A stretch of 64,000 nt of DNA from Escherichia virus TH15 (MT446392.1); one strand, 5' to 3'. Counted from the first letter of the stretch, positions 8,001 through 46,849 are shown. The notes: generated by a model from the sequence alone, not told the origin. A program made the numbers and translations.

Positions 8001-8056
8001 AAAAAGTAGTGTACATCAGTATGGAGTCTATGTATAATGATTCCATACTGAGTTAC
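8001..8056 (+). promoter_or_regulatory. Early promoter cassette copy 1 (TGTACA -35, 17-nt spacer, TATAAT -10, conserved leader gattccatactgagttac)
   Basis: -35 at 8010-8015, -10 at 8033-8038; 9-bp inverted repeat (8018-8026 / 8042-8050) encloses the -10. Confidence 0.6.
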
Positions 8057-8072
8057 CAAACTGGAGAATAAA

Positions 8073-8228
8073 ATGAAACCTGCTCAATATGCAATGACTT
8101 TATACCTTGAAGTTAATGGCGATATTACTGAATTTTTTAAATTAATGCAACAGCGTGGTAAAAGTTTTGCAGTTACCGAGCGTCAATTTTACGCTTGCCG
8201 TAAAAATACATACAATCGTTACGCGTGA
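8073..8228 (+). CDS. Small hypothetical protein (51 aa)
   Basis: First ATG downstream of promoter cassette copy 1, with GGAG SD. Confidence 0.3.
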   Translation: MKPAQYAMTLYLEVNGDITEFFKLMQQRGKSFAVTERQFYACRKNTYNRYA

Positions 8229-8238
8229 GGAAAACAGA

Positions 8239-8505
8239 ATGGATATTAAATTATACTACGCCAAACACAAAGTTACAGGTATGGTTGTTGCCGCTATGTA
8301 TGATGCGTCAGGCGATGGTGATGATGTTACTACAGAATTGTCTCTTTCTGAATGTAAATTTCTTCGCCCGCTAGTTGCATCAAAGTGTGATTTAGAAAAG
8401 CTTATTGATGGAAAACTGGATAATGTTGATGGCATAGATATTCTTTATGACCTTCGCACTGCATTGCACAGGGGTCTGATTGAAATAAAAGAGGTGATAT
8501 TTTGA
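8239..8505 (+). CDS. Hypothetical protein (88 aa)
   Basis: Internal ATG with GAGGA SD; track start 8155 is probably not used. Confidence 0.4.
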   Translation: MDIKLYYAKHKVTGMVVAAMYDASGDGDDVTTELSLSECKFLRPLVASKCDLEKLIDGKLDNVDGIDILYDLRTALHRGLIEIKEVIF

Positions 8506-8596
8506 GCAGCAAAACCTGGTGCCTTATCTGGATGCTGTGTATCCCAGTAATTTGCGTTTGTTTTAGTTTATTATTAATGAAACTTGCATAAAAGAG

Positions 8597-8642
8597 TGTA
8601 CATCTCCAGTGGTTGTAGTATAATGAACCTATCAACTACTGG
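8597..8642 (+). promoter_or_regulatory. Early promoter with a hairpin whose 3' arm covers the SD
   Basis: TGTACA 8597-8602, TATAAT 8619-8624; inverted repeat ctccagt (8604-8610) / actggag (8636-8642) spans the -10 and the GGAG SD. Confidence 0.5.
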
Positions 8643-8650
8643 AGATGATT

Positions 8651-8767
8651 ATGAAAAAGTTACTTAAAGCCATTTGGAACATGTTTGTACTGTTTGTTGT
8701 CCTGAGCATTTTCCCAATTGTTTTTATGATTGACCATGTACGTGTTTACTTTAACTATTTCTTTTGA
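8651..8767 (+). CDS. Small hydrophobic peptide (38 aa, one predicted TM segment)
   Basis: ATG follows an early promoter and GGAG; hydrophobic core FVLFVVLSIFPIVFMI. Confidence 0.3.
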   Translation: MKKLLKAIWNMFVLFVVLSIFPIVFMIDHVRVYFNYFF

Positions 8768-8777
8768 GGAAAATATT

Positions 8778-8900
8778 ATGCGGTATAGTTCAAACTTTCA
8801 GAAATCCAATCGTCGCTTTGACTTTATGTTCAAGTTTATTGTGGCGATGATTATCCTGATTTTCATTGGTGCTATTGCAATGATTGGTTTCCAGGTCTAG
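8778..8900 (+). CDS. Small hydrophobic peptide (40 aa, one predicted TM segment)
   Basis: GAGGA SD; hydrophobic core FIVAMIILIFIGAIAMIGF. Confidence 0.3.
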   Translation: MRYSSNFQKSNRRFDFMFKFIVAMIILIFIGAIAMIGFQV

Positions 8901-8980
8901 ATTGCTGCTGAAGTGTTCACGCAAATCCAGGATAATGGTCTGAAGTCTGTTGTTGACGTAATTTGGAATGGAGCTAAGCA

Positions 8981-9226
8981 ATGAAACTTTTTAAAGACAT
9001 TGTAGTTGGTGAAAAATTTGTCCTTGGTAATGGTCAACAATTGATTCGCATTTCACCTTTGATGGATAACAGCGAGCGTCCTGTGCGCACTGAAAACTGT
9101 TTGGATTATCCTTTTTATCAGAAGCGTTTTGCAATTGAAAATAATACTGAGTGCTTCACAGTTGATGAACTGATGGAATCATCAGAAGAAGTTGACTTGT
9201 GGGATGGCGCGGTAGACCCTGAATAA
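8981..9226 (+). CDS. Hypothetical protein
   Basis: ORF with GGAG SD in the ndd-proximal hyperplastic region. Confidence 0.45.
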   Translation: MKLFKDIVVGEKFVLGNGQQLIRISPLMDNSERPVRTENCLDYPFYQKRFAIENNTECFTVDELMESSEEVDLWDGAVDPE

Positions 9227-9242
9227 AATTGAGGAAATCATT

Positions 9243-9587
9243 ATGTCTAAAGTCTTTTTTGGTAATCGCAACATTATGTTCTTTAAACAAATTAGCGTAT
9301 CAGAAGCATTTGATTTAAGTTATTCAGGTGGCACAAAAGTTGTTCACCTTAAAAATTTGATGTCTGCAGAATTTGCGTTCTATCAGGACCCTGAAACTGG
9401 TTTCTATAAATTTATTAAATTCCGTATGACTATGGACCGTGATTATCGCGATGTTTATTATACAAGTTATGAAAGTGTTGTGAATGCAATTCGTGAAGCT
9501 TATGGATTGGATTCATTGTCTCTTGACCGCCTGTATAATGCAAGCCTTTATACTTCTGGATTTATTTTAGAACAGCTACAAAAATAG
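9243..9587 (+). CDS. Hypothetical protein
   Basis: ORF with GAGGA SD. Confidence 0.45.
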   Translation: MSKVFFGNRNIMFFKQISVSEAFDLSYSGGTKVVHLKNLMSAEFAFYQDPETGFYKFIKFRMTMDRDYRDVYYTSYESVVNAIREAYGLDSLSLDRLYNASLYTSGFILEQLQK

Positions 9588-9630
9588 TATACAAACTCTT
9601 GGGGTCAGAGTATAATGACCCCACTGGAGC
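9588..9630 (+). promoter_or_regulatory. Early promoter (TATACA -35 / TATAAT -10) with flanking inverted repeat
   Basis: -10 at 9611-9616 flanked by ggggtca / tgacccc. Confidence 0.45.
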
Positions 9631-9660
9631 ACAAAACTTTAACTTACTGAGGAAATTAAT

Positions 9661-10110
9661 ATGACTACTTACATGACTCGTCGTGACGTACTGAATGCTG
9701 GCGCTACCACTATTGCTTACATCCATAATGGTAATTATGTTGCGGGGCGTCCAACTAAAGAAGCTATCACCCAACCAGGTTTTTATTTCGTGGTCAAAGG
9801 TGAAGGCGAATCACGTATTGTTGCCGCACGTTTTTATGTTGGTAACCAACGTTCACAACAAGGGTTTGACACTGTATTAAGTCACATCCGCAAACAGCGT
9901 TCTCAACTGTCTCGCACAATGGCGAACAATGGGGTTATCTATGAAGTCCTGTTTGTCCCGGTTTCTAAAATGAAACCTCTGACAACTGGTTATGGTAAAG
10001 GTCAAATTGCGATGGCGTTCACTCGCTCGCATAGTTCTGATTGTCAGACCCTTTCAGAAATGAATCGCATGCTTGCTGATAACTTTAAATTCATTCTGCA
10101 GAGCTATTAA
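9661..10110 (+). CDS. ndd: Nucleoid disruption protein Ndd
   Basis: 149 aa; motifs [39 protein letters not shown] and C-terminal [12 protein letters not shown] match remembered T4 Ndd. Confidence 0.8.
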
Positions 10111-10199
10111 TATGAGTAATTTCCATAACGAACATGTGATGCAATGGCATCGTCATAATCTTAAATTAACTGGCGTCTTTGGACGCCCTTGAGGAAAAT

Positions 10200-10367
10200 A
10201 TGACATCAGTCTTTTCATTCATTTATCTAGTGGCGGTCATTGTTTTAGTAACTCTTTTTGTCGCAGGTGTCTTCATCCCGCCTATGTGGTTTGTTTATTT
10301 CTTGTGTGGATGGTTTGTACTGGATGCCTTAGTTAAATTTATGGTTTCCGCGGTGAGCAATGATTAA
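10200..10367 (+). CDS. Small membrane protein (55 aa; ac/stp-region analogue)
   Basis: ATG with GAGGA SD (track start 10179 is TTG); two hydrophobic segments. Confidence 0.35.
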   Translation: MTSVFSFIYLVAVIVLVTLFVAGVFIPPMWFVYFLCGWFVLDALVKFMVSAVSND

Positions 10368-10450
10368 GAAAATCTTGGGCTACTCGTTAGCCCTTGCTGC
10401 CTTATTGGTGGCGCTGTATTATGGAATTGTGTTTGCATTAGTGCAGGTTG

Positions 10451-10475
10451 TGCTTTTTATTTCTGATGCTATAAT
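10451..10475 (+). promoter_or_regulatory. Middle promoter (MotA box TGCTTT plus TATAAT) for gene 52
   Basis: TGCTTTTTA at 10451-10459, TATAAT at 10470-10475; T4 gene 52 is also middle-transcribed. Confidence 0.5.
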
Positions 10476-10504
10476 GGCAGTACATTCACTGATATGGTAA
10501 AAAT

Positions 10505-11836
10505 ATGCAACTGAATAAACGTGATTTAAAAGACATTATTGACGTGGAAGCATTGTCATATGCTATCTACACTGTGGAAGGTCGTGCCATTCCAAACATG
10601 ATTGATGGTTTTAAACCAGTTCACAGATTTGTTATGGCGAGAGCATTAGACCTGGCTCGTGGTGATAAAAATAAATTCCATAAGGTTGCATCCATCGCAG
10701 GTGGCGTAGCTGATTATGGTTATCACCATGGTGAAGCATCAGCTGAAGAAGCAACTTCTGGTTTGGTCGCAACATATAAAAATGAATACCCTATGTTTGA
10801 TGGGCAAGGTAACTTTGGTTCCAGAATGGTGCCAGAAGCATCATCAGCTCGTTATGTATTCGCAAGGGTTTCAAAGAACTTTTACAACTTGTTTAAGGAT
10901 ACAGAATATGCTCCGGTCCATCCTGATGAAGAACATAAGCCTCCTGCTTTTTATCTTCCTGTTATTCCTACTGTATTACTTAACGCCACTTCTGGGATTG
11001 CTGTTGGCTTCGCTACTGATATTCTTCCTCATTCGTTCCAGGACGTCAAGGAAGCTGTTAAAGCTATCGTGGAAGGTCGTGAGCCGGTTGCTCCGAAAGT
11101 AAAATATCCAGAATTCCGTGGTGAAGTTGTTGAGCTGGAAGAGCCTGGTAAGTATGAGCTTCATGGCACGTACAAAATGACTTCCAGAACTCAAATGGAA
11201 ATTACTGAAATTCCAGTCCAATGGAACCTGGAAAAGTATACAAGTAAAATCCTGGACCCGCTGGAAGAGAAAGGTTTTATCACCTGGAAAGATAACTGCG
11301 GCGAACATGGTTTTGGGTTTAAGATTAAATTCCGTAAAGAATACAAGCTGGACGGCACTGAAGAAGAGAATCATGAGAAAATCATGAAAGACTTTGGTCT
11401 GATTGAAAAGCTCTCCCAGAACTTAACAGTGCTTAATCACAAAGGTAAACTGGCTGAATACACCAACACGCTTGACTTGATTCGCGATTTCGTTGATGTC
11501 CGTAAGACTTATGTCCAAGTGCGAATTGACAGTAAGATTAAAGAAACTGAAGCAGCATTTAAACTGGCCCGAGCGAAAGTTTTCTTTATTAAAGAAGTTA
11601 TTGATGGCAAGGTTGTTATCCAGGGTAAACCTCGTAAGAAGTTGATTGAGGAGCTCCAGGCAAGCGAAATATATGGCGATTATGCAGAGAAGTTAGTGGC
11701 GATGAACATCTACCATATGACCTCTGACGAAGCCAAGAAGCTTGCAGACGAAGCAAAGGCTAAGAAAGCTGAGCATGAGTACTGGAAGGCAACTGATGTT
11801 AAAACTGAATACCTTAATGACTTGGAGGCTCTATGA
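10505..11836 (+). CDS. 52: DNA topoisomerase II medium subunit (gp52, GyrA-like)
   Basis: 443 aa versus T4 442 aa; N-terminus with the active-site tyrosine region (SYAIYTVEGRAIPNMIDGFKPVHRFVM). Confidence 0.9.
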   Translation: MQLNKRDLKDIIDVEALSYAIYTVEGRAIPNMIDGFKPVHRFVMARALDLARGDKNKFHKVASIAGGVADYGYHHGEASAEEATSGLVATYKNEYPMFDGQGNFGSRMVPEASSARYVFARVSKNFYNLFKDTEYAPVHPDEEHKPPAFYLPVIPTVLLNATSGIAVGFATDILPHSFQDVKEAVKAIVEGREPVAPKVKYPEFRGEVVELEEPGKYELHGTYKMTSRTQMEITEIPVQWNLEKYTSKILDPLEEKGFITWKDNCGEHGFGFKIKFRKEYKLDGTEEENHEKIMKDFGLIEKLSQNLTVLNHKGKLAEYTNTLDLIRDFVDVRKTYVQVRIDSKIKETEAAFKLARAKVFFIKEVIDGKVVIQGKPRKKLIEELQASEIYGDYAEKLVAMNIYHMTSDEAKKLADEAKAKKAEHEYWKATDVKTEYLNDLEAL

Positions 11837-11927
11837 GCATAGAAAATGAATACGCAGTGATTTGTGCTGCTGTAGTTGGCCTGTTGATTGCCTGGGTTAT
11901 TGGCAAAGTGATTGATTCTTAAAAACT

Positions 11928-11951
11928 AGGACCCTTCGGGGTCCTTTTTTA
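11928..11951 (+). terminator. Intrinsic terminator downstream of gene 52
   Basis: aggacccttcggggtcctttttt. Confidence 0.7.
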
Positions 11952-11955
11952 TTTT

Positions 11956-12011
11956 AAAAAGTAGTGTACAAGTCCCTTGACCTGATGCATAATGATTCCA
12001 TACTGAGTTAC
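11956..12011 (+). promoter_or_regulatory. Early promoter cassette copy 2 (terminator-proximal)
   Basis: -35 TGTACA 11965-11970, -10 CATAAT 11988-11993, same 18-nt leader as the other copies. Confidence 0.6.
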
Positions 12012-12039
12012 CAAATGAATCAAACTACGGGAGAATAAA

Positions 12040-12255
12040 ATGTTTACTGCACAACAGAATGAAGGTCAAGAATACATCAACGCTAAATTCAAATCTAACA
12101 AAGAAGCTTGCTATTACTACTTTGACATGTTCAAACTGGCGAATTCTAAAGAAGAACGTAAACAAGCGATTGATGTTATTGTTTCTACTTCCCATATGAA
12201 GCGTACTGTGGTACAATCATATGCATCCAATTACATGAAATCTATTAAGGGATAA
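12040..12255 (+). CDS. Hypothetical early protein
   Basis: First ORF after promoter cassette copy 2; GGGAGA SD. Confidence 0.45.
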   Translation: MFTAQQNEGQEYINAKFKSNKEACYYYFDMFKLANSKEERKQAIDVIVSTSHMKRTVVQSYASNYMKSIKG

Positions 12256-12257
12256 TT

Positions 12258-12866
12258 ATGAACAAGTTAAATTATATCGTTAAATGCTCCCAGAACGCTC
12301 TACACGAGACTGATGTCAATGCTCTGGTGTTTGTATACAAAAACAACTTTGTTCGTCCTGAGGTTGTTTTAGACCAGCAGAACACATCAATTGATAGCGT
12401 ACAGACATTGTTGAATAACAACTATGTTGAAGCTTCTGGTGATGGTTTGATGATTACAGAAAAGGGTGTTGACCTTATTCTGGATGCAGCTGAACTTTGG
12501 GCAAATGAAAATAATCCTGACCTTCTGGAAGTAAAGAAGACAAGAACAAAACGCGGTGTGACTGATGAAATGGAAGCGACTGCAGAATATATCAAAGAGC
12601 AATTGTTGTCCATTGGTATTGACTTTAAGAGCATTTCAGAAGACCGCAGTAATTTGATTGTGAAGTTCAAGCGTGTCAAGACATTAAAACAGATTGATGT
12701 GCGCCGCGATGGTCAGATTCGTGTGCATGCGTATAATACTGAACAAAAGATAGTAAAACAGTTTACAGACGTGGGATTTAGTGTTAAAGTAGGTGGATTG
12801 AATACCTACATTGACAATCATATGTCAACTGAAAACATTCAACATGTTATTAACATCTTAAAGTGA
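12258..12866 (+). CDS. motA: Middle-transcription activator MotA
   Basis: 202 aa; segments EASGDGLMITEKG and ELWANENNPDLL parallel remembered T4 MotA; position between 52 and asiA. Confidence 0.8.
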   Translation: MNKLNYIVKCSQNALHETDVNALVFVYKNNFVRPEVVLDQQNTSIDSVQTLLNNNYVEASGDGLMITEKGVDLILDAAELWANENNPDLLEVKKTRTKRGVTDEMEATAEYIKEQLLSIGIDFKSISEDRSNLIVKFKRVKTLKQIDVRRDGQIRVHAYNTEQKIVKQFTDVGFSVKVGGLNTYIDNHMSTENIQHVINILK

Positions 12867-12873
12867 GGAAATT

Positions 12874-13206
12874 ATGAATAAGCTGAATATTGTTAATGAA
12901 TTGCGCGCTTGTGTAGAACCTACTCAAGAGGGTTGGGATGTTTGGTATCATGGCGCTTATCTTGGAACTATTATCAAGGTCAAAGCTGGTCAATATCTTA
13001 TCCATCGCCAAGATGATGCAGCAGCTCCGTTTGGTGTTCGCAAGAACTTCATGGCGGCAATTGGTGCCTTTGTTCCAGCAGCATATGAAGTCTATAAAGC
13101 TGACTACAAAGAATACCAGGAATCACAACCAGTTATTCGCTCAATTGGTGTTAATAAAGCTCAACAGAAAAGTCTGTGGCAACGTGTTAAAGGTTGGTTC
13201 AAATGA
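12874..13206 (+). CDS. Hypothetical protein
   Basis: ORF with GAGGA SD in the motA-asiA interval. Confidence 0.45.
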   Translation: MNKLNIVNELRACVEPTQEGWDVWYHGAYLGTIIKVKAGQYLIHRQDDAAAPFGVRKNFMAAIGAFVPAAYEVYKADYKEYQESQPVIRSIGVNKAQQKSLWQRVKGWFK

Positions 13207-13541
13207 TTCCTATGGAGCTAAACTGGGATGGCGAAGGCCATTCCCTTAAATTGATTGAAGAACAACGTAACGCTTGGGATGAGCGCTGCGCCCTGGTGAA
13301 TGGTATTAAGGTAATTTATAACCTTCATCTCCAGATTGATAATGTTTCTCTTGAGTTTGGTATGCAGTTATCACGTTTTCTTGAGATTATTACTATAGAA
13401 AAAGTATCTATAACTTCGTTTGGTGTATGCCAAACAGTTGATATCAAATTGACTTCTTCTGACAAAGGCGAGCTGATTGGTATTGGTGATAAAATTCATG
13501 AATTCGTGAAATATAATGGTTATAAGGTGATTATTAAATGA
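13203..13541 (+). CDS. Hypothetical protein
   Basis: ATG overlapping the previous stop (ATGA); track start 13194 is TTG. Confidence 0.4.
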
Positions 13542-14026
13542 ATCCATTAAAAGGTAAAGAATTATCCTTTAAAGACCGTATGGCCTTGTTAGATAAAGCT
13601 CTTTCTCGGGAGACTCCTGAAAGTCTCGCTGCTAAATTACAGGCATACGGTGATTACACCGAATATTCTGAACAAGATGTTCTAAAAGAAGTCCCAGAAA
13701 TCTGTTGGCAGATTGCTCATTGGAACAATAATGAAAAATATCAGCGACGGATTGTATGTGCAGCTAACCGCTTTAAGCTAAAAGATGGTGGGACTCTGGT
13801 TATTCCTGGAGCCAGACATTATTCAAAAGATATGGCAGAAGTGCTTGACCAGGTAAGTGATAAACTTGTGTCAGACCATGTTTGTGGTGATAATCAAGGA
13901 TTCATTGACCAGTACAGCAATTACTGGACTCGCGAAGAAGCAATGATTATTGCGACTTATGCAAATCAGGTGCGTATTGAACGGGGTGGTAGTGAGAAAG
14001 AACTTTATTCAGAGGACCTTTACTAA
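13538..14026 (+). CDS. Hypothetical protein
   Basis: 162-aa ORF, translationally coupled to its neighbours. Confidence 0.45.
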
Positions 14027-14304
14027 TGAACCTTAAACAACTCCAAATTGATGCGATTGAAAACCATATTAATCATATCAAACGTCTGAATACTATGATG
14101 GAAGAAAACTGGGGAACTTATGTCAACCAACCTGGTTGGGATGCTTTGGACCATGAATATATAAAGGATATTAGTGATAACACGTATAGAGTTAGAGAAG
14201 GCCTGAAGCCGTTCCTGCGTGATATGTATATCGCAACAAATAAAGCAATTATTAATTATCTTGAATACAAATTAAGGGAATTGCATGAACAACCTGGTAG
14301 CTAA
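14026..14304 (+). CDS. Hypothetical protein (92 aa)
   Basis: ORF overlapping the previous stop (TAATG). Same size as T4 Arn but no sequence evidence, so not assigned. Confidence 0.45.
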   Translation: MNLKQLQIDAIENHINHIKRLNTMMEENWGTYVNQPGWDALDHEYIKDISDNTYRVREGLKPFLRDMYIATNKAIINYLEYKLRELHEQPGS

Positions 14305-14616
14305 GCACGATTTCAATAAGGCGTCTGTCCATAAGGACAAGAAGAAAAACTTTAAAGAATCCAATCGCAAACAGAAACATAAGGGTAAAGGCTATGAGTC
14401 ATAACTTAGAGAACACCGTTACTGGTCAGCGTACACGCGAGCAAGCTTGCTTTGAGGAATTCCTTGGAGCTGATTTTAAGTTCCAGGAACCAATTGAAGA
14501 TATGTATCAGACATATGTTGTACAGATGGAAAATCATGTGTACAACCCCGAAGAATAATAGTACAATATCCTTACTGAATAATTGAATGTCTTATTGAAT
14601 ACTTGAGTAAAATAAA

Positions 14617-14892
14617 ATGACTAAATTTGAAATCGTTTCTGAAATTGTTACCGTTACTTCAATTTTGATTAAAACCGACCGGGAAGATATTACGATGAAG
14701 CGTGATGTGTTTATCGCGTTTTTGAATGAGTTGGGATTGAGGAATGAGAATGGGAATGAGTTAAACAATGTATCGTTTAACAAGTTGTTTAAAAGTTTAT
14801 CTGAAGATGAAATTGAACAAATCATTGAACAATTTAACGAAGGATTCGAAGATATACACCGATATCTGATGATGTATACCTCCGGATTCTAA
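14617..14892 (+). CDS. asiA: Anti-sigma70 factor AsiA
   Basis: 91 aa; EIVTVTSILIK, FIAFLNELG and FNEGFEDIHRYLMMYT match remembered T4 AsiA. Confidence 0.85.
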   Translation: MTKFEIVSEIVTVTSILIKTDREDITMKRDVFIAFLNELGLRNENGNELNNVSFNKLFKSLSEDEIEQIIEQFNEGFEDIHRYLMMYTSGF

Positions 14893-15542: not shown

Positions 15543-15560
15543 ACTTTTCTCCTTTAAAGA

Positions 15561-15568
15561 TATTTATA
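15561..15568 (-). promoter_or_regulatory. Late promoter TATAAATA for holin t
   Basis: Minus-strand TATAAATA 18 nt upstream of the t start, followed by AGGAG. Confidence 0.55.
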
Positions 15569-15579
15569 GCGCAAAAGTA

Positions 15580-16380: not shown

Positions 16381-16391
16381 ATAAACCTCCA

Positions 16392-20356: not shown

Positions 20357-20382
20357 ACGAAAAAAGGACCCGAAGGTCCTTA
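20357..20382 (-). terminator. Intrinsic terminator downstream of gene 35
   Basis: Minus-strand reading: aggaccttcgggtccttttttcg. Confidence 0.65.
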
Positions 20383-29356: not shown

Positions 29357-29360
29357 TATA

Positions 29361-29390
29361 AGGGGACCTTCGGGTCCCTTTTTTATTTTC
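29361..29390 (+). terminator. Intrinsic terminator downstream of gene 32
   Basis: aggggaccttcgggtcccttttttatttt. Confidence 0.8.
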
Positions 29391-29446
29391 AAAAAGTAGT
29401 GTACAAGTCCTTTGAGCTAAGGCATAATGATTCCATACTGAGTTAC
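29391..29446 (+). promoter_or_regulatory. Early promoter cassette copy 3 (after the gene 32 terminator)
   Basis: aaaaagtagtgtacaagtcc...gcataatgattccatactgagttac; -35 29400-29405, -10 29423-29428. Confidence 0.6.
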
Positions 29447-29471
29447 ACGATAAACAACCGAGGAAATTAAA

Positions 29472-29843
29472 ATGATGGAAACTGGTAAATTTTATACATT
29501 AGACCCTGCTGCCAAAAAACAATTCATCGCTGGTAGTCCTGATGACAATTCGCGCATGGTCAAGCTGATGGGACAACATGGCAGTTCCTTCAAAGTCCTG
29601 GATATGTGCTATATTGATGGCGATTATTTTGTCGAAAAAGTTGAAATGAAAGATGGCACCATCCTTGATAGTATGGATGGTGCTGATGAGTACTTTGAAC
29701 TCGCTGAGTGGGAATTCCGTCACTTCCTGGAAGTGGATGAAGCTCCAGCTCCTGTTGTTGACACGCAAACCATTCATGTGCAAGTCAATCACAAAAATGC
29801 TGCTGAAGTCATTGCCCTGATTAAAGCTACCTTTGGAATTTAA
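29472..29843 (+). CDS. Hypothetical early protein (paralog family member A)
   Basis: GKFYTLDPAAKKQFIAG and DEYFELAEWEF shared with the ORFs at 30166 and 43181; own promoter cassette upstream. Confidence 0.5.
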   Translation: MMETGKFYTLDPAAKKQFIAGSPDDNSRMVKLMGQHGSSFKVLDMCYIDGDYFVEKVEMKDGTILDSMDGADEYFELAEWEFRHFLEVDEAPAPVVDTQTIHVQVNHKNAAEVIALIKATFGI

Positions 29844-30106
29844 TATGACTAAAGATGATTTCCTGGATGCAGTAGAAAAAGCCAGCGAACAGTTTGAAGT
29901 GATGGGTGTACGTGTCCATAAAGACCGAAATTACGGACTTGATGTTCAAACGTATTCTCTATGGCTTGTAGGGCGAGCATAGTCTTGTAACCACTTTAGT
30001 TATGGGTGTAGATACTTATCCTTTGTTAGTCAAGTTCAGAAGTCTGGAAAAAGCTACTAAAGAAATGACCAAACTTGGTAAATGGCTCGACAAAATTTAA
30101 AAAGTT

Positions 30107-30135
30107 GTTTACAATATCTTTAAACATGATATTAT
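30107..30135 (+). promoter_or_regulatory. Early promoter (GTTTAC -35, 17-nt spacer, TATTAT -10)
   Basis: Matches the T4 early-promoter -35 consensus; followed by the agacctatcaa leader also seen at 30562. Confidence 0.55.
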
Positions 30136-30165
30136 AGACCTATCAAAACAAATGAGGAAATTAAA

Positions 30166-30528
30166 ATGGAAATCGGCAAAAAATATGAGTTCAATCCACA
30201 TCGTATTAAATCTTTCATTGATATTAGTTCATCAAATGCTAATATGGTCGACATCATCCAAGAAAATGGCGGTTGGTTTGAAGTTAAATCAATATCAAGT
30301 GCAGACGGTTATGATTATGTAACCGAAGTCATTTTTGCTAATGGCACAATCTATAATGATGATGGTATGGGTGACGAGTATTTTGAACTTAGTGAAGAAG
30401 AGTTTTATTGCTTCCGCGAATACTCCAGTTATACAAAAACACCTTCAGGAGCGGTTTCTATTAATTGTGTTGTAGATGCTAATAACGTTGACCAAATCAT
30501 TGAACTTCTACAAAAAGCTTTCAAATAG
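30166..30528 (+). CDS. Hypothetical early protein (paralog family member B)
   Basis: GKKYEFNP...DEYFELSEEEF and C-terminal IIELLQKAF parallel the ORF at 29472; own GTTTAC/TATTAT promoter. Confidence 0.5.
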   Translation: MEIGKKYEFNPHRIKSFIDISSSNANMVDIIQENGGWFEVKSISSADGYDYVTEVIFANGTIYNDDGMGDEYFELSEEEFYCFREYSSYTKTPSGAVSINCVVDANNVDQIIELLQKAFK

Positions 30529-30530
30529 CA

Positions 30531-30561
30531 GTTTACAAAGGGTCTATGGTTGAGATATTAT
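30531..30561 (+). promoter_or_regulatory. Early promoter (GTTTAC / TATTAT) with inverted repeat ggtctat / atagacc
   Basis: Sequence gtttacaaagggtctatggttgagatattatagacc. Confidence 0.5.
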
Positions 30562-30590
30562 AGACCTATCAATTACATGAGGAAAATAAA

Positions 30591-30818
30591 ATGGCTAAAG
30601 TTAATATTGATATCGTTGATTTTGAATACACTTATGAAGTTATCCGTAATCGTTATCCTTCTTTGAGTATGACTTACATCAAAGATACCCAATTCTTTAG
30701 TATCCAAATTGAAATCCAAGGTCCTCTTGAAGACCTGACTCGTTTTATGGCTGACGAGTATTGTGATGGTATGCATGCTGAAGATGCTGAATTTTATATG
30801 GGCTTAATCCAAAAATAA
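30591..30818 (+). CDS. Hypothetical early protein
   Basis: ORF with GAGGA SD and its own early promoter. Confidence 0.45.
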
Positions 30819-30820
30819 AT

Positions 30821-30851
30821 GTTTACAACAGGGCTATGGTAGTGATACTAT
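30821..30851 (+). promoter_or_regulatory. Early promoter (GTTTAC / TACTAT) with inverted repeat ggctat / atagcc
   Basis: Sequence gtttacaacagggctatggtagtgatactatagcc. Confidence 0.5.
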
Positions 30852-30877
30852 AGCCTTACCAACTTGAGGAGAATAAA

Positions 30878-31117
30878 ATGAAATTAAAACGTGAGAGCAT
30901 CAAAGATTCAGAAGTTAAAGGTAAATGGTACTTCACAATCCAGGGTAACAATCCTGAAGCTCTGGAAAAAGCAGAAGAAACTTTGTGTGCAATGGGTTGG
31001 AAAGATGAGTGTGATGGTTGTCCTCTTTATGAAGATGGTAGCTCATCTGGTTTCTGGATTCACCACTCTGATGTTGACCAATTTAAAGCTGACTGGAAAA
31101 TCGCTAAGAAAGCGTGA
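30878..31117 (+). CDS. Hypothetical early protein
   Basis: ORF with GAGGAG SD and its own early promoter. Confidence 0.45.
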   Translation: MKLKRESIKDSEVKGKWYFTIQGNNPEALEKAEETLCAMGWKDECDGCPLYEDGSSSGFWIHHSDVDQFKADWKIAKKA

Positions 31118-37965: not shown

Positions 37966-37967
37966 GG

Positions 37968-37988: not shown

Positions 37989-37991
37989 TCT

Positions 37992-39535: not shown

Positions 39536-39545
39536 TAAAAAGGGG

Positions 39546-39574
39546 TGTACAAGCCCCTTCTTTCTATACATAAT
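39546..39574 (+). promoter_or_regulatory. Early promoter whose -35 (TGTACA) lies in the loop of the preceding terminator hairpin
   Basis: Hairpin ggggtgtacaagcccc; CATAAT at 39569-39574 with 17-nt spacer. Confidence 0.5.
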
Positions 39575-39605
39575 GGTTCCATCAACTACTGATGAGGACC
39601 AAACC

Positions 39606-39839: not shown

Positions 39840-39849
39840 GGAAAATATT

Positions 39850-40353
39850 ATGAATATGCAACTGATTTCAAATGATATGATTGTTGATGTATATGGTGAC
39901 CGCCATGACGGAATCTATGTTTATAAGGGTTCCAAAAATGTTGGGTTCCTTACTGACTTAAGAAAGAAACTGGCGTCTGATAATAAGTTGAAGACCAAAC
40001 AGAAGGAATATCGCAATAAGAAATCAGAAGAGCGGAAAGAAGCCCTTCATGAATCTGTTCCAGAAATGGTTGACTTCTTAAAGAACCATTTGGTTAAATA
40101 TGATGCAGAAGTGTTCATCAATCAGACCCAACCTAATGTGCATATCAATGGATGTGTTTGTTATGTTGTGGTTGAACCCCTGACACTTCAACACCGCCTG
40201 GGAATTAAACACCCAGTGTTAACCCAGGATGATATGGCGGATGAAGTTGGTAATCAGTTCCGCATTTCAGCATCTGACAGTACAAATCACATCCTCCTGA
40301 ATGGTTTATCCCAGGATGATATTGTTGAGGTAATCATCAAGTTATGCAAATAA
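39850..40353 (+). CDS. alc: Alc-position protein (candidate host-transcription terminator Alc)
   Basis: Exactly 167 aa like T4 Alc and located directly after RNA ligase 1 as in T4; sequence identity not verified from memory. Confidence 0.55.
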   Translation: MNMQLISNDMIVDVYGDRHDGIYVYKGSKNVGFLTDLRKKLASDNKLKTKQKEYRNKKSEERKEALHESVPEMVDFLKNHLVKYDAEVFINQTQPNVHINGCVCYVVVEPLTLQHRLGIKHPVLTQDDMADEVGNQFRISASDSTNHILLNGLSQDDIVEVIIKLCK

Positions 40354-40697
40354 GTAATCTAACTGCAGGGCTTATGCTCGCCCTGGTAGTAACTGCTGGT
40401 AGTGGTTTCTATCTAAAAGCAAAAGTGGATAATCTCAAGACAGAGGTGGCTGCGGTCACCAAAGTTGCAGAAGATAACGCGAAAAATCTACAATCAATAA
40501 AAGACCAGGTTAATCAAATTAATCTCCTTGACCAGGAGCGCCAGGAATATGTTGAACTTCTGCAAAAGGAAAATGATAAACTTCGTGCAGACGCAAAACG
40601 TGCTAAGGTTGTGGCGGCTAAGCCTAAATTAGTTGAAAAACAGATTAATCAGTCCTTTGATAAGTTTGCCCAGGACTTCCAGGAGCTCACCAAATGA
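40344..40697 (+). CDS. i-spanin (Rz-like, pseT.3 analogue)
   Basis: N-terminal TM helix followed by a long charged coiled-coil; overlaps the following lipoprotein gene. Confidence 0.6.
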   Translation: MQISNLTAGLMLALVVTAGSGFYLKAKVDNLKTEVAAVTKVAEDNAKNLQSIKDQVNQINLLDQERQEYVELLQKENDKLRADAKRAKVVAAKPKLVEKQINQSFDKFAQDFQELTK

Positions 40698-40984
40698 TGA
40701 AATCTATCATGGCAGTATGTTTGGCTATTGGACTTGTTTCATGCGCCCAGAAGCCTGTTGTGGAGCCCACAATTCAAGTTCATCCTAATTGGCCACAGAC
40801 ATTAATGGAATACCGTCAGCAATGGGAAGTGAAGGTAATTGACGGTCAACCATGGGTTGGTATGCCTTTTGAAGCATCGCAAGAATTCCGGATTTGGATG
40901 AATGATGTAAAAAGGTATGTACATGACCAAAAAGGTATGTTATGTTATTATCGTTCTGAACTAAAAGAGGAGCGTTGCAAATGA
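40694..40984 (+). CDS. o-spanin outer-membrane lipoprotein (Rz1-like, pseT.2 analogue)
   Basis: Signal peptide with lipobox LVSC; small Cys-containing periplasmic domain. Confidence 0.6.
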   Translation: MMKSIMAVCLAIGLVSCAQKPVVEPTIQVHPNWPQTLMEYRQQWEVKVIDGQPWVGMPFEASQEFRIWMNDVKRYVHDQKGMLCYYRSELKEERCK

Positions 40985-41088
40985 TAGAGACCTGTAGCCT
41001 TGGTTGGGATATTGTTAGATTTGGTGCATTCTGTTTTTGTTTTGGGATTGCGGCCACTTTATGTGTTCAAGGTCTTTTTGGAAAGTAG

Positions 41089-41117
41089 TGTACAAACTCA
41101 TGGGAGCAGAGTATAAT
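41089..41117 (+). promoter_or_regulatory. Early promoter (TGTACA / TATAAT) with inverted repeat ggagc / gctcc around the -10
   Basis: 17-nt spacer; drives the ORF at 41149 and pseT. Confidence 0.5.
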
Positions 41118-41148
41118 GCTCCTACGGATAATAATTGAGGAAATAATT

Positions 41149-42364
<1,216 letters not shown>

Positions 42365-42365
<1 letters not shown>

Positions 42366-42565
42366 TGAACAATATCGAAAAGATTTTTCGCAAGATTGAA
42401 GAAATTGAAAAAGGTTATGAATACTTTTTCAGCGTATGGCCGCTAACTGATGGACGTATCGGTCTGGATGTGATGGACTATCAAGATGAAGACAAGGTTG
42501 ATGGCGGTATCTTTACCTCCGCCACGGCCCTCCTGGACTTCCTGGAAGAGCATTATGTACGATAA
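42365..42565 (+). CDS. Hypothetical protein
   Basis: ORF coupled to the pseT stop. Confidence 0.4.
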
Positions 42566-42770
42566 ACACGATGAAATTAAAGAGGAAGCATACGGCTTCC
42601 TTAACAAACTAGCTGGGCAAGGAATGTCACCTGCCCTGATTAATGAACTGGTAAAAATTCGTAATGATATGAACACAAGATATAAAGGTGAATATCATGT
42701 AGAGTTTGCACCGCTGGTCGAAATCACCGACCGATTCGTTGTTGATGTTCGGGTTCACACCGTTCATTAA
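42555..42770 (+). CDS. Hypothetical protein
   Basis: Internal ATG overlapping the previous ORF end. Confidence 0.35.
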   Translation: MYDKHDEIKEEAYGFLNKLAGQGMSPALINELVKIRNDMNTRYKGEYHVEFAPLVEITDRFVVDVRVHTVH

Positions 42771-42841
42771 CGCTTTAAAAATTTTATGTTATAATGGGTC
42801 TAGGTCCTTTGGATAACCCCAATAACTAAGCGAGAAAAGAA

Positions 42842-43120
42842 ATGTTTCCTACATATTCTGAAATTGTTAAAGTAGTTTTTAGTCAGATTGTATCTGACTA
42901 TCTATACGAAAGCGTCGACGTGTCGACTGAACTAAAAGTGCACGGTCGTTTGTCTGCTATTCTGGAAATCATGTTCCCGGATGCAGTTGATGCAATCACT
43001 GTTCAACTCACGCCTGGTGCGGCATTTGCAATTGTTCCATTTAAAATCGATAACCACATTTTGGCTATTTCATGCAAAATGGACTTCCAGAAACAAACGG
43101 TAGTTGTCGAAGCAATTTAA
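42842..43120 (+). CDS. Hypothetical protein
   Basis: ORF downstream of a middle-type promoter. Confidence 0.4.
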   Translation: MFPTYSEIVKVVFSQIVSDYLYESVDVSTELKVHGRLSAILEIMFPDAVDAITVQLTPGAAFAIVPFKIDNHILAISCKMDFQKQTVVVEAI

Positions 43121-43122
43121 GT

Positions 43123-43151
43123 GTTTACTTTCACCATGGATGGTGTATAAT
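43123..43151 (+). promoter_or_regulatory. Early promoter (GTTTAC / TATAAT, 17-nt spacer) with palindromic spacer caccatggatggtg
   Basis: Consensus -35 and -10 hexamers upstream of the ORF at 43181. Confidence 0.55.
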
Positions 43152-43180
43152 GAATTTCATCAACACATGAGGAAAACAAA

Positions 43181-43723
43181 ATGAGTAATTTCTTTGAAGA
43201 AGGTAAGTTTTACAAATTTGTATCTGAAAATGCCAAAAAACAGTTTGTCGCTGGTGGATGGGCAGCTAATTACCAAATTGCTAGATACATCGGTATGACT
43301 CCGTTTGAAGTTAAGATTGTCCCTGATAATATTAGCGGCGGAAGAAAGGTTTGTGAGATTCGTTTGATTGATGAAAATAATTTTGTGGATTTGGCAAAAA
43401 TATCTGATGCACAAAACAGACATCATGGAGCAATATTTGTTTCCAATGGTCCTTTGTCAGATGAATTTGAATATTTCATCCAGGTAGAAGTTGGTATTAA
43501 GCCAGAAGTTGAGCCTGTACCAGCGAAACTTGCATCAGTTTGGAAATTGCTTGTGGTTAAAAATGGCAAGATTGAGATTAACTCTCGTCATACGTCAAAA
43601 GAATACGCGGAAGACGAAGCAGAGCGGCTGTTAAACCGTGGTACTGCAGAAGATTGCTATATTATCAAGGGCGATATCACAAAAGCTTCTATCGTTAAAC
43701 AAGTAAAACAGGAGACAATCTGA
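43181..43723 (+). CDS. Hypothetical early protein (paralog family member C, extended)
   Basis: N-terminal GKFYKFVSENAKKQFVAG and DEFEYFIQVE resemble the ORFs at 29472 and 30166; own promoter with GAGGA SD. Confidence 0.5.
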   Translation: MSNFFEEGKFYKFVSENAKKQFVAGGWAANYQIARYIGMTPFEVKIVPDNISGGRKVCEIRLIDENNFVDLAKISDAQNRHHGAIFVSNGPLSDEFEYFIQVEVGIKPEVEPVPAKLASVWKLLVVKNGKIEINSRHTSKEYAEDEAERLLNRGTAEDCYIIKGDITKASIVKQVKQETI

Positions 43724-43956
43724 TGCTTAGCGAAACCCCAATTACTGTTGAAGAGTTTCACGAAAAAGTGAAGGCATTTGCTCAAGCGATGATTAACCAC
43801 GTATCACAGCGATTTCCTGATGCGACTCTGAAAGTTATTCAGGAATCTGCACGCAGTTTTATGATTGTCATTAATCCAAAAGATGGTGACCAGTTTACTC
43901 AATTGAAATTGGGTTCTGACGGTCTGGTTGAAGCACAGCGAGTGTACATTCAATGA
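43723..43956 (+). CDS. Hypothetical protein
   Basis: Translationally coupled ORF. Confidence 0.4.
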   Translation: MLSETPITVEEFHEKVKAFAQAMINHVSQRFPDATLKVIQESARSFMIVINPKDGDQFTQLKLGSDGLVEAQRVYIQ

Positions 43957-44288
43957 TGAATTTGATGGATATTTTCCAGGAAGCACTTAAAAATGATTTA
44001 GGTGACCATCGTAAGTTGGACCCGGAGACAACTGCATTTATCAAAGTAACGCTTGCAAATGATGCTCTGTTTAAAAGTATTCACCCAAGTAATTATGATG
44101 CGGTTGTTATTACAGAAGCTCCTGTAGAAATTGGTGAGCGAATGTTTGGGGTGATTTTTGATGATAAGAAAAAACGCTTCAGTGATGGTGATAGTATAAT
44201 TACAACACATGTTAAGAGCATTACTAAATTGCGACATGAATTATATCGTGTTGAAACTATTAAAACCAATTATCTCGTGGTGATGTAA
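43953..44288 (+). CDS. Hypothetical protein
   Basis: Translationally coupled ORF. Confidence 0.4.
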   Translation: MMNLMDIFQEALKNDLGDHRKLDPETTAFIKVTLANDALFKSIHPSNYDAVVITEAPVEIGERMFGVIFDDKKKRFSDGDSIITTHVKSITKLRHELYRVETIKTNYLVVM

Positions 44289-44870
44289 ATGAAACCAACT
44301 ACTGTTCTGCAAATCGCGTACCTTGTATCTCAAGAATCAAAATGCTGCTCCTGGAAAGTGGGAGCTGTTATTGAAAAGAATGGACGCATTATTTCTACAG
44401 GGTATAATGGTTCCCCTGCGGGTGGGGTCAACTGTTGCGAGCATGCGGAAGAGCAAGGTTGGTTACTGAATAAACCTAAACCTGTTCTCGTCCCCGGCCA
44501 CAAGCCAGAATGTGTGAGATTCAGTAAGGTTGACCGTTTTGTATTGGCGAAAGCCCATCGCGAAGAACATTCTGCATGGTCAAAGAACAATGAAATCCAC
44601 GCAGAACTTAATGCAATTTTGTTTGCGGCAAGGATGGGGTCGTCAATTGAGGGAGCGACTATGTACGTGACGCTTTCTCCTTGTCCTGATTGCGCAAAGG
44701 CAATTTCGCAATCAGGAATCAAGAAATTGGTTTACTGTGAAACGTATGACAAGAATATTCCTGGTTGGGATGATATCCTGAAGAATGCAGGAATTGAGGT
44801 GTTCAATGTGCCTAAGCGTAGTCTAGACAAATTGAACTGGGAAAACATTAACGAATTTTGTGGTGAATAA
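44289..44870 (+). CDS. cd: dCMP deaminase
   Basis: 193 aa as in T4; zinc-binding motifs HAE...E and SPCPDCAK. Confidence 0.9.
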   Translation: MKPTTVLQIAYLVSQESKCCSWKVGAVIEKNGRIISTGYNGSPAGGVNCCEHAEEQGWLLNKPKPVLVPGHKPECVRFSKVDRFVLAKAHREEHSAWSKNNEIHAELNAILFAARMGSSIEGATMYVTLSPCPDCAKAISQSGIKKLVYCETYDKNIPGWDDILKNAGIEVFNVPKRSLDKLNWENINEFCGE

Positions 44871-45103
44871 TGAAATTTCGATTAGTTAAGTTTTCAGGTC
44901 TGAACTCAAAAGGCGAAAGCTTAGTAGCCTATTCAGTAGAATACAAAAAGTACTTTTTCTCTCGCTGGAAATCGTACTATAAATCCGAGTGGGTTCGCCC
45001 CGAAATGAACTATAAAACGGTGCCTATTCTTGAAAATTGTCATAGCCTATTAAGAGCTCTAAAAGAGCGTAATGCAACAACCATTAAAACTGTTTTGGAA
45101 TAA
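44870..45103 (+). CDS. Hypothetical protein
   Basis: Translationally coupled ORF. Confidence 0.4.
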   Translation: MKFRLVKFSGLNSKGESLVAYSVEYKKYFFSRWKSYYKSEWVRPEMNYKTVPILENCHSLLRALKERNATTIKTVLE

Positions 45104-45105
45104 TT

Positions 45106-45405
45106 ATGATTTTAACTGAACAAGAAACAATTCGTCTCCGTGAAAAAGTCAAGACTATCTTGTCTGTTGGCTTTCACGAAGTTCTGTTTGAAAAAGCAGA
45201 TGGCAGCATCCGTCGTATGACTTGTACTCGCGACCTGGACCTGCTGCCGTATAAAGAAATCCAGGCCCCTGGGCCAGAAGCTAGTAAAGAACCGGTTAGC
45301 TATATCCGGGTATTTGATACCAAGCTTAATGAGTGGCGTTCATTTTGTTTCAATAAATTGGTTTCTGTGAATGGATTACAGACCGAGACTCTGCTCGTCC
45401 TTTAA
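45106..45405 (+). CDS. Hypothetical protein
   Basis: 99-aa ORF. Confidence 0.45.
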   Translation: MILTEQETIRLREKVKTILSVGFHEVLFEKADGSIRRMTCTRDLDLLPYKEIQAPGPEASKEPVSYIRVFDTKLNEWRSFCFNKLVSVNGLQTETLLVL

Positions 45406-45436
45406 TGCTTCAAACAACGCGTGTTATTATTAATAC

Positions 45437-45784
45437 ATGACCAAACAACATGGATTAAATATGGAATTACCAATTAAAGCAGTAGGTGAATATATTATTT
45501 TGGTTTCTGAGCCAAAGCAAGCTGGCGATGAAGAAACTACGGCATCAGGTATCGTTATCGGAAAACTCCATCAGGGTGAAATCCCAGAGATGTGTGAAGT
45601 ATTTTCGATTGGTCAAGATGTTCCTGAAGGCTTCTGTGAAGTAGGCGATTTGACTCCTCTTCCGGTTGGCAAGATTGCAAACGTTCCACATCCTCTGGTT
45701 GCTCTGGGGCTTAAGCAGGCTAAAGAAGTTAAGCAGAAATTTGTGACCTGCCATTATAAAGCTGTTCCTTGTCTTTATAAGTAA
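45437..45784 (+). CDS. 31: Co-chaperonin gp31 (GroES-like)
   Basis: [21 protein letters not shown] and C-terminus [51 protein letters not shown] near-identical to T4 gp31. Alternative start at 45461. Confidence 0.9.
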
Positions 45785-45941
45785 AATTAGCGTTATAAAT
45801 AATAATATGGATTGGCTGCCGGACCAGTTAGTTAACCGGAGAATCCTAAACGGTGGACTACAACTGAGAGACTTGCCGAAAGGAAGTGAAATTCAGAAGA
45901 ACGTGTCCACCAAATATTCACCTCATATTGAGGCTTCTAAA

Positions 45942-46196
45942 ATGTCTTTAAACAAACAATTACAACACGCTCTTGAACTGCAACGCACTGCATGGAATAA
46001 CGGTCACGAAAACTATGGCGCATCTATTGATGTTGAAGCCGAAGCACTGGAAATTCTGCAGTATTTCAAACATCTTAACCCGGTACAAACCGACCTTCGC
46101 GCTGTACTCGAAGCTAAAGATGAATTGAAATATGCTAAGCCGCTGGCATCTGCTGCGCGTAAAGCTGTTCGACATTTTGTCGTTACTCTGAAGTAA
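45942..46196 (+). CDS. rIII: Lysis-inhibition accessory protein rIII
   Basis: Internal ATG with GAGG SD; LQRTAWNNGHENYGASIDVEAEALEIL and C-terminus KYAKPLASAARKAVRHFVVTLK match remembered T4 rIII. Confidence 0.8.
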   Translation: MSLNKQLQHALELQRTAWNNGHENYGASIDVEAEALEILQYFKHLNPVQTDLRAVLEAKDELKYAKPLASAARKAVRHFVVTLK

Positions 46197-46594
46197 GTTT
46201 TAGGTGATTCGCTACCTTAAGTGCGGCTAGAAAATCGAGGAGCCGTCGAACTGTCTGATTAATGATTTGCGAATCATTATAGTTTTAAGACCCCGGCAGT
46301 TTTACGGTGTACCTCTTGAATGTTATTTTATAGCGGCAAGTGCATGCTACCCCGAGGTGATGGCCAATCGGGAGTACGCCTCAAGGCCTATATATCCATC
46401 AGTATATATCTTATCCTCGAGTAATCGGACCCGGAACCTTTAAGCTAACGGTGTGCAACAGATAAGAGCTATAAAGTATGATGGCGAGGTTTATGGTTAT
46501 CCTGCCGTTAAATATCCGAAACCTAATGTTCCCTTCGAGGGCTTGCGCAGGCAATGTCAATAAGTCCTGCATTCTATTTTAAAGAGAATTTAAT
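46197..46594 (+). other. ORF-free, relatively GC-rich structured intergenic region (candidate non-coding RNA or leader)
   Basis: About 400 nt with stops in all frames; several local inverted repeats (for example aatgatt-tgcg-aatcatt at 46261-46278, cccttcgaggg near 46540). Confidence 0.35.
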
Positions 46595-46756
46595 ATGGCT
46601 AAGAAAGAAGTTAAAGTTGTTGATGGCTCCTCCAAACGCGCTGGTTACAAGCGTGCGTCCAACAAGCGAATCAATCAGGTGGCTGATAAACTTCAGGCTC
46701 GTGCTCGTGCGGTATTGCGTGCCGATGCAGCTTGCTTTGGTAAGCCGAAAGCGTAA
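46595..46756 (+). CDS. Small basic protein (53 aa)
   Basis: ATG ORF rich in K/R/A, ending directly at a strong intrinsic terminator; codon usage typical of highly expressed genes (cgt, gct, aaa). Confidence 0.35.
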   Translation: MAKKEVKVVDGSSKRAGYKRASNKRINQVADKLQARARAVLRADAACFGKPKA

Positions 46757-46760
46757 GTTC

Positions 46761-46790
46761 AGGGACTCTTCGGAGTCCCTTTTTTTTATT
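46761..46790 (+). terminator. Intrinsic terminator downstream of the small basic ORF
   Basis: agggactcttcggagtccct followed by eight T. Confidence 0.8.
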
Positions 46791-46793
46791 TTC

Positions 46794-46849
46794 ATAAAAG
46801 AGTGTACAACAGGATTTGCCCAGTGCATAATGATTCCATACTGAGTTAC
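46794..46849 (+). promoter_or_regulatory. Early promoter cassette copy 4
   Basis: -35 TGTACA 46803-46808, -10 CATAAT 46826-46831, identical leader 46832-46849. Confidence 0.6.

Follow-up and report, generated by a model that had tools for sequence, protein, structure and literature searches.

Promoter-early stem-loops (PeSLs) have been described in RB49/phi1 (Arbiol et al. 2010, PMC2839356) and in T4/PST and KVP40/nt-1 (Comeau et al. 2014, PMC4122927); those of phi1 have promoter and terminator activity in reporter assays, and recombination between neighbouring elements yields excised mini-circles (PMC2839356). A second point of reference is the early promoters of T4, very strong promoters for host RNA polymerase that drive immediate-early genes such as motA (PMC2988021). 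Here we describe four near-identical cassettes in a 64,000-nucleotide (nt) stretch of Escherichia virus TH15 (MT446392.1; hereafter the window), and consider it probable, at roughly three chances in four, that they form a 'type A' subfamily of Gaprivervirus early-gene expression cassettes of the same kind as PeSLs. The comparisons below show them to be repeated composite units of predicted terminator, promoter and 5' untranslated region (5'UTR), under selection and located at recombination junctions.

Judged by sequence comparison, the window is from a T4-type phage of the genus Gaprivervirus (VR7/SP18-like), being 94–97% identical to Escherichia phages VR7, VR25, VR26, UPEC01 and others. T4-type early genes lie on its + strand; the window is inverted relative to the deposited records, so that + is the early-gene strand. 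Searching with a relaxed -35/-10 pattern gives no fewer than 14 early-promoter-like sites with a Shine–Dalgarno sequence (SD) and an ATG behind them. All lie on the + strand, and the four type-A copies are a subset of these. We found no usable description of VR7 early promoters in the literature.

Like PeSLs, the cassettes are composites of a stem-loop and a sigma-70-type early promoter that are AT-rich upstream and end in an SD and a start codon; many intergenic copies occur per genome, beside small open reading frames (ORFs), one of them an ORFan here; they sit where close relatives differ by indels, replacements or displaced ORFs; and the positions taken by their stem-loops include 'upstream of -35' and 'overlapping the -10'. 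Unlike the described PeSLs, which have polyG/polyC stems, they occur in Gaprivervirus and in the Gualtarvirus phage MP1 and have a TGTACA -35 and C(UUCG)G loops. Three features seen here are absent from the PeSL papers and are modest additions to the published description: the invariance of the initial transcribed sequence, a second start family that can take its place, and an either/or relation between terminator and hairpin. The resemblance to the 'uber' UP/-35/TGn/-10 early promoters of T4 (Hinton 2010, PMC2988021) lies in the A-rich UP element, the GTTTAC-type -35 and the 'additional regions of consensus'; the differences are that a 12-nt invariant transcribed block is unreported in that review and that the TG stands at -14/-13 here rather than at the canonical -15/-14.

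Anatomy of the type-A cassettes

The 23-nt sequence ATAATGATTCCATACTGAGTTAC has exactly four matches in the window, all on the + strand (8034, 11989, 29424 and 46827), where none is expected by chance, so the original prediction of four near-identical copies holds; on both strands of the window, allowing up to 3 mismatches revealed no further match (0.00 expected from shuffles). Alignment of the copies bears out the predicted 17-nt spacer and (C/T)ATAAT: TGTACA-17-(C/T)ATAAT lies behind an A-tract in 4/4 copies, with a -10 of TATAAT in copy 1 and CATAAT in copies 2–4. The invariant run is unbroken from the -10 through the end of an 18-nt block and has GTGTACA ahead of it, while the spacer has almost no bases common to the four copies. 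The upstream 15-mer aaaagtagtgtacaa, also predicted to be shared, is exact in copies 2 and 3 but not in copy 1 (...gtgtacaT) or copy 4 (aaaag-agtgtacaa).

The 18 nt that had been called an identical transcribed leader are identical in all four copies, but only about 12 of them are likely to be transcribed. Counting the usual 7 nt from the -10 puts the predicted start (+1) at the A of ATACTG (8045, 12000, 29435 and 46838), which makes GATTCC the discriminator and leaves only ATACTGAGTTAC as transcribed sequence. From 5' to 3', a type-A cassette thus consists of a stem-loop, a UP-like A-tract, the -35 TGTACA, an unconstrained 17-nt spacer, the -10 (C/T)ATAAT, GATTCC and ATACTGAGTTAC, followed by a short C/A-rich unstructured 5'UTR and then GGAG and an ATG; each of the four copies has an SD and then an ATG downstream. 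As predicted, three copies (2, 3 and 4) directly follow a UUCG terminator, that is, a G+C hairpin with a TTCG loop and a T-run. Copy 1, which has no terminator, directly follows the stop codon of the upstream ORF. The features, all on the + strand, are as follows.

8001–8056, +: type-A cassette 1, without upstream terminator; A-tract 8001–8006, -35 TGTACA 8010–8015, spacer 8016–8032, -10 TATAAT 8033–8038, discriminator GATTCC 8039–8044, start region ATACTGAGTTAC 8045–8056
8016–8051, +: inverted repeat across the -10 of cassette 1; arm TCAGTATGGAGTC (8016–8028) pairs with GATTCCATACTGA (8039–8051), 13 bp
8063–8066 and 8073–8228, +: SD GGAG and 51-amino-acid (aa) ORF behind cassette 1
11928–11951, +: terminator before cassette 2, AGGACCC-TTCG-GGGTCCT and T-run (hairpin 11928–11945), closing the gp52/ORF278 transcription unit
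11956–12011, +: type-A cassette 2; -35 11965–11970, -10 CATAAT 11988–11993, discriminator 11994–11999, start region 12000–12011
12029–12866, +: operon of cassette 2; SD GGGAG 12029–12033, 71-aa VR7ORF277c-like ORF 12040–12255, motA 12258–12866
29360–29387, +: terminator after gene 32, AAGGGGACC-TTCG-GGTCCCTTT and T-run (hairpin 29360–29381)
29391–29446, +: type-A cassette 3; -35 29400–29405, -10 29423–29428, discriminator 29429–29434, start region 29435–29446
29460–29463 and 29472–29843, +: SD GAGG and frd.2b-like ORF behind cassette 3
46761–46788, +: terminator after gene 30.9, AGGGACTC-TTCG-GAGTCCCT and T-run (hairpin 46761–46780)
46794–46849, +: type-A cassette 4; -35 46803–46808, -10 46826–46831, discriminator 46832–46837, start region 46838–46849
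46863–46866 and 46873–47241, +: SD GGAG and gene 30.8 behind cassette 4

The conserved block also contains a mini-ORF, ATG ATT CCA TAC TGA (8036–8050 and the other three copies), which would be present in read-through RNA only and is probably coincidental.

Gene rearrangements and family distribution

At three of the four sites in the window, gene insertions, replacements and order permutations have their breakpoints within the cassettes. The predicted link to gene-order breakpoints in related genomes was thus found at copies 1, 3 and 4; copy 2 (ORF277c-like/motA) is syntenic in all Gapriverviruses, with no rearrangement.

The slot behind copy 1 has four alternative gene contents among relatives. 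The 51-aa ORFan at 8073–8228, for which no PHROG family was found, occupies it in about half of the Gapriverviruses (the window and 15 other genomes); the slot is empty in VR7, VR20 and VR25; VR26 has a 68-aa RB14-gp266-like ORF instead; and SP18, PSD2001 and P479 have an RB69ORF270c-like gene, with homology to the window ending at the ATG. At copy 3, four consecutive cassettes (29400, 30108, 30532 and 30822) within 29391–30880 separate frd.2b+254, frd.2a, frd.3 and frd.1. Between gene 32 and frd.1 the units are ordered frd.2b+254 / frd.2a / frd.3 in the window, frd.2a / frd.3 / frd.2b+254 in VR20, frd.2a / frd.2b+254 in SP18 and frd.2b+254 / frd.3 in VR7; the order in VR25 also differs from that of the window, and every order junction in this block falls in a promoter cassette. 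At copy 4, about 380 extra nt are present in SP18 and three other phages, which in SP18 are gene 30.6A between two UUCG hairpins, and the Dhakavirus orthologue shares both terminator and promoter with it but differs in the start region. VR26 also has a chimeric cassette in which the promoter half of nrdC.8 is joined to the leader half of ORF098c, and there the upstream gene has been replaced as well.

These observations support the predicted reading as mobile cassettes of PeSL type at every point that sequence can address. In the mechanism we propose, host RNA polymerase holoenzyme with sigma70 would fire the cassette promoters immediately after infection, the stem-loop would insulate each unit against upstream transcription, and the repeated conserved blocks would serve as homology for modular exchange; because these blocks recur around the genome, homologous recombination may insert, delete, replace and permute the genes behind them.

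A 33-nt probe counts 11–15 cassette places per genome in all 34 Gaprivervirus records. Type-A copies of VR7 lie in the denB-ndd, motA, 30.x, e.x, nrdC.x, dmd and srd regions. Beyond the genus, Morganella phage MP1 (genus Gualtarvirus) has five type-A promoters in one hyperplastic region, where they are annotated as MEME-derived 'promoter'; the MP1 paper merely lists them. Single copies occur in Dhakavirus fDHCT2 (33-nt probe) and in IME341, which suggests, from sequence, lateral transfer of a cassette together with its gene. In the fDHCT2 record the whole denB-to-copy-1 region (59122–60050) is 88% identical to the window, and in IME341 (L053) the gene behind the cassette starts with the same bases as the MP1 and SP18 genes behind type-A cassettes. 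Scans of IMG/VR (a 16-mer, and ATAAT-N5-CATACTGAGTTA) and of one metagenome returned only Gaprivervirus, MP1 and IME341, besides chance coding matches.

Alternative stem-loops

Intercistronic regions of T4 contain C(UUCG)G hairpins, and in T4 genes e, soc, 49 and I-TevI hairpins hide translation starts in long transcripts. Both arrangements have counterparts here: the UUCG-loop terminators ahead of three copies resemble the former, and hairpins that span a -10 and are predicted solely for read-through RNA, at 8016–8051, 8601–8647 and about 47253–47286, resemble the latter. Unlike the start-hiding hairpins of T4, the copy-1 hairpin covers the start region, and the SD is masked only at the type-B promoter at 8597.

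The copy-1 inverted repeat folds at -24.9 kcal/mol (z -3.18), and on this model its formation is confined to read-through RNA or single-stranded DNA. The predicted leaders of the primary transcripts are unstructured relative to shuffles, with z values of 0.08, 1.14, 1.40 and -0.07 for the four copies.

We compared the complementarity of spacer and start region in 50 cassettes, 21 with and 29 without an upstream terminator. A complement of at least 8 nt, which has a null probability of 0.004, is found in 10/29 cassettes without a terminator (8–11 nt) versus 0/21 with one; in the latter, the longest complement is at most 5 nt, as in shuffled spacers. The ten complementary spacers represent four independent registers: TCAGTATGGAGTC in copy 1, TCAGTATGGGA at VR7 nrdC.8, and AACTCAGTATG and GGTAACTCAG in MP1. 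At VR7 nrdC.8 the change is compensatory, with TCAGTATGGGA pairing with a correspondingly altered GTTCCCATACTGA. Terminator and spacer/start hairpin are mutually exclusive across the 50 cassettes; on this comparison a predicted stem-loop is an obligatory cassette part whose position is either/or.

Two further promoters in the window have such hairpins. The gene 30.7 promoter (47247–47290) has the design of copy 1, its spacer GGTACAGGT pairing with ACCTGTACC across the -10 (-18.8 kcal/mol, z -3.60). At the type-B promoter at 8597, the spacer complements the start region and SD (CTGGAGA) of an ORF starting at 8645/8651, giving a hairpin at 8601–8647 (-28.1 kcal/mol, z -4.36) that, as modelled, would mask the SD solely in transcripts entering from upstream. 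Ten perfect stems of at least 5 bp with a TTCG loop are found in the window, on the + strand at 2838, 6602, 11930, 29364, 37970, 46764, 51509 and 53974 and on the - strand at 20379 and 16405; most have a T-run after them and so resemble the C(UUCG)G terminators of T4 type.

The conserved start region

The conservation profile was taken from 49 distinct cassettes of the window, VR7, VR20, VR25, VR26, SP18, IME341 and MP1, with VR7 covered except for about 7 kb of late genes. Information content is near-maximal from the -10 to +12; it is moderate over the -35 and the A-tract, and the spacer has next to none. Both hexamers vary (TGTACA/TATACA/TTTACA and CATAAT/TATAAT/TATTAT), as does the discriminator (GATTCC, GTTCCC, TATCCC, GATTTC, AAACCC and GGTCCC), whereas ATACTGAGTTA shows one A-to-G change in the entire set and +12 can be C, A or T. 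Conservation of the 12 bases predicted to be transcribed first, ATACTGAGTTAC, exceeds that of both the -35 and the -10. The discriminator and start of the T5 promoter N25, which we take to read AGATTC-ATA, resemble the GATTCC-ATA of the cassettes here. The start block always lies directly behind the -10 and is never uncoupled from it, while its distance to the ATG ranges from 16 to about 35 nt. MP1 keeps 11–12/12 bases of the start region, and its proteins behind type-A promoters are 45–61% identical to VR7ORF145c and ORF147c, both likewise type-A-driven; that the block is kept while neighbouring proteins have diverged this far points to purifying selection across a distance that saturates neutral sites.

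A second family of conserved starts, type B (ATCAACTACTGA), can replace the type-A start at the same locus. VR7 has 11 type-A promoters, about 13 of type B (start ATCAACTACTG(A/G)) and a few others; the type-B start region usually runs straight into the SD. The exchange is seen at the gene 32/frd.2 junction, where terminator and promoter are common to all phages compared through GATTCCAT. Beyond it, the window, VR26, ECML-359 and TH57 continue with the type-A sequence ACTGAGTTAC, and VR7, SP18, VR20 and VR25 with the type-B sequence CAACT(A/G)CTGA (start ATCAACT...). A promoter shared up to GATTCCAT and then continuing as A or B argues that the start region is a module swapped by short patch, with its junction at +2/+3. 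Type-B promoters in the window lie at 8597–8660 and also at 39546, 30108, 30532, 43124 and 53618.

The original prediction held that conservation past the -10 goes beyond what promoter function needs. The conservation is real, but the premise is too strong, since the initial transcribed sequence is itself a determinant of promoter output (PMC5961368, PMC12464699). At strong, escape-limited promoters of the T5 N25 type, changes from +3 to +20 shift productive output about 10-fold (PMC12464699; Heyduk and Heyduk 2018, PMC5961368), and libraries of initial transcribed sequences span about 3 orders of magnitude in output (PMC5961368). The invariant 12 nt would then be an initial transcribed sequence, a promoter part in the wide sense that sets escape or early elongation, maintained by purifying selection and spread by short-patch gene conversion. 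We favour such a role at the level of RNA polymerase, at very strong, escape-limited promoters, because the block is rigidly coupled to the -10 and not to the ribosome-binding site, because a second conserved start family exists, and because initial transcribed sequences strongly affect the output of escape-limited phage promoters; the preference is tentative, and we put this role at somewhat less than even odds.

Several points weigh against the account given so far. We know of no RNA polymerase contact in the initial transcribed region that would demand total invariance of 12 bases, and the true -10 and -35 are less conserved than the start region. The T at +5 and G at +6 resemble slow-escape rather than fast-escape motifs (PMC5961368). 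The identity of 23–32 bp is short for efficient homologous recombination, and all starts, promoter activity, termination and recombination here are inferred from sequence. Metagenome contigs L100, L127 and L123 contain chimeric type-A cassettes whose halves are separated by as much as 18 kb in VR7; these could be real recombinants or assembly mis-joins, and we kept them out of the evidence because a 25–32-nt repeat can mis-join assemblies.

The block might instead act in RNA, as a tag in which a trans-acting factor, such as a phage or host RNA-binding protein or nuclease, recognises the 5'-terminal AUACUGAGUUAC of primary transcripts and co-regulates, through their stability or translation, an immediate-early regulon made up of ORF277c-motA, srd, the dmd operon, 30.8 and several ORFans, the cassette still being a PeSL. 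Conservation above that of the -35 and -10, kept across genera at 45–61% identity of the neighbouring proteins, would suit such a tag, as would the unstructured and hence accessible leaders; where read-through is possible, moreover, either a terminator keeps upstream transcription from reaching the block or a hairpin masks it, so that it would be free only as a 5' end. We nevertheless think the tag unlikely: the 16 to about 35 nt between block and SD/ATG do not fit a translational operator, coupling to the -10 is never broken, no candidate binding protein came to light, no Rfam match was found, and within 4 mismatches neither the window nor VR7 holds a complement besides the spacer arms. More broadly, ATACTGAGTTAC may be a dedicated recognition signal and not just a generic part of the promoter. 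RNA polymerase/sigma70 or a phage factor could recognise it on DNA, or it could serve in RNA as a 5'-terminal tag; it would mark an immediate-early regulon (the motA operon, srd, the dmd operon and ORFans) conserved between Gaprivervirus and Gualtarvirus, would be exchangeable with ATCAACTACTGA, and would be 'silent' when internal by virtue of the terminator or the spacer-encoded hairpin. We regard this, too, as a doubtful proposition.

Less probable still is a second contact with sigma70, in which CATACT (-1 to +5) would be a promoter-proximal pause element like that of lambdoid PR' or the -10 of an overlapping promoter. CATACT near-repeats the -10 at 11 bp downstream (CATAaTGAtT / CATAcTGAgT) and in all copies its second base is the critical A and its sixth the critical T, with TATACT in one VR26 copy, and sigma-dependent pauses arise from just such a repeat of the -10 past the start, as at PR' (PMC5001585, PMC9191641). 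A pattern scan further finds TTGACC-16-CATACT in copy 2 (TTGACC 11977–11982), where CCTTGACC is invariant among orthologues (L001, L010, L020, L038 and L116) while the flanking spacer bases vary; the spacer of the VR7 65.6-kb cassette has the same ATTGACC as copy 2. Unlike the lambdoid element, however, the cassettes have no downstream T-N-Y-G at the position expected for a scrunched pause (consensus PMC9191641): about +13 to +16 reads CCAAA or CACAA, and +12 to +17 of the four copies is CCAAAC, CCAAAT, CACGAT or CACAAT. Only about 1 in 5 sequences supports a scrunched sigma-dependent pause (PMC9191641). A -35-like hexamer is absent from most spacers, and a -10-like element would not need all 12 bases invariant. 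We know of no Q-like factor in T4-type phages that would exploit a sigma-dependent pause. The least probable reading, one we consider remote, gives the block no function of its own; its identity would stem from the copies being young and kept alike by gene conversion (concerted evolution). Short-patch exchange does occur, as the chimeric cassettes and the swap of A and B starts at a single locus show, and the single copies in fDHCT2 and IME341 indicate lateral spread. Yet paralogues have essentially random spacers and even orthologues have drifted there, which means that the copies are not young; MP1 keeps its start bases despite the divergence of the neighbouring proteins; and compensatory spacer changes follow the block.

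Other candidates were rejected. A structured RNA leader (riboswitch, attenuator or Rfam family) finds no Rfam match in the window, and the leaders fold no better than shuffles; a search of the window and VR7 for an antisense partner in the phage, which used the 18-mer, covered both strands and allowed as many as 4 mismatches, returned only the spacer arms and chance coding matches; and the initial-transcription pause consensus T-N-Y-G is absent from +2 to +12. To our knowledge, none of the consensus of NAD-capping promoters, an integration host factor site, a cold-box, complementarity to 16S rRNA or the mini-ORF fits the block well. The 5'UTR behind copy 2 has TGAATCACAAA in VR7 (record ~162560; L002), VR20, VR25 and VR26, and TGAATCAAAC at 12016–12025 of the window; we take TGAATCACAAA to be 11 nt of the idealised 'downstream box' complementary to 16S rRNA 1469–1483.

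Our reading of the cassettes as PeSL-type units would extend such shuffling cassettes to another widespread group of T4-like coliphages, including therapy candidates, and the group supplies clean natural cases of promoter cassettes at which genes have been inserted, replaced or permuted in order. Two questions follow for strong phage early promoters: why the initial transcribed sequence should be steadier than either hexamer, and why there should be two versions of it that can replace each other. Were the start block a true recognition signal, the immediate-early genes behind it would form a co-regulated set; were it a promoter-escape element, it would be a natural, evolution-optimised initial transcribed sequence, possibly useful in promoter engineering.

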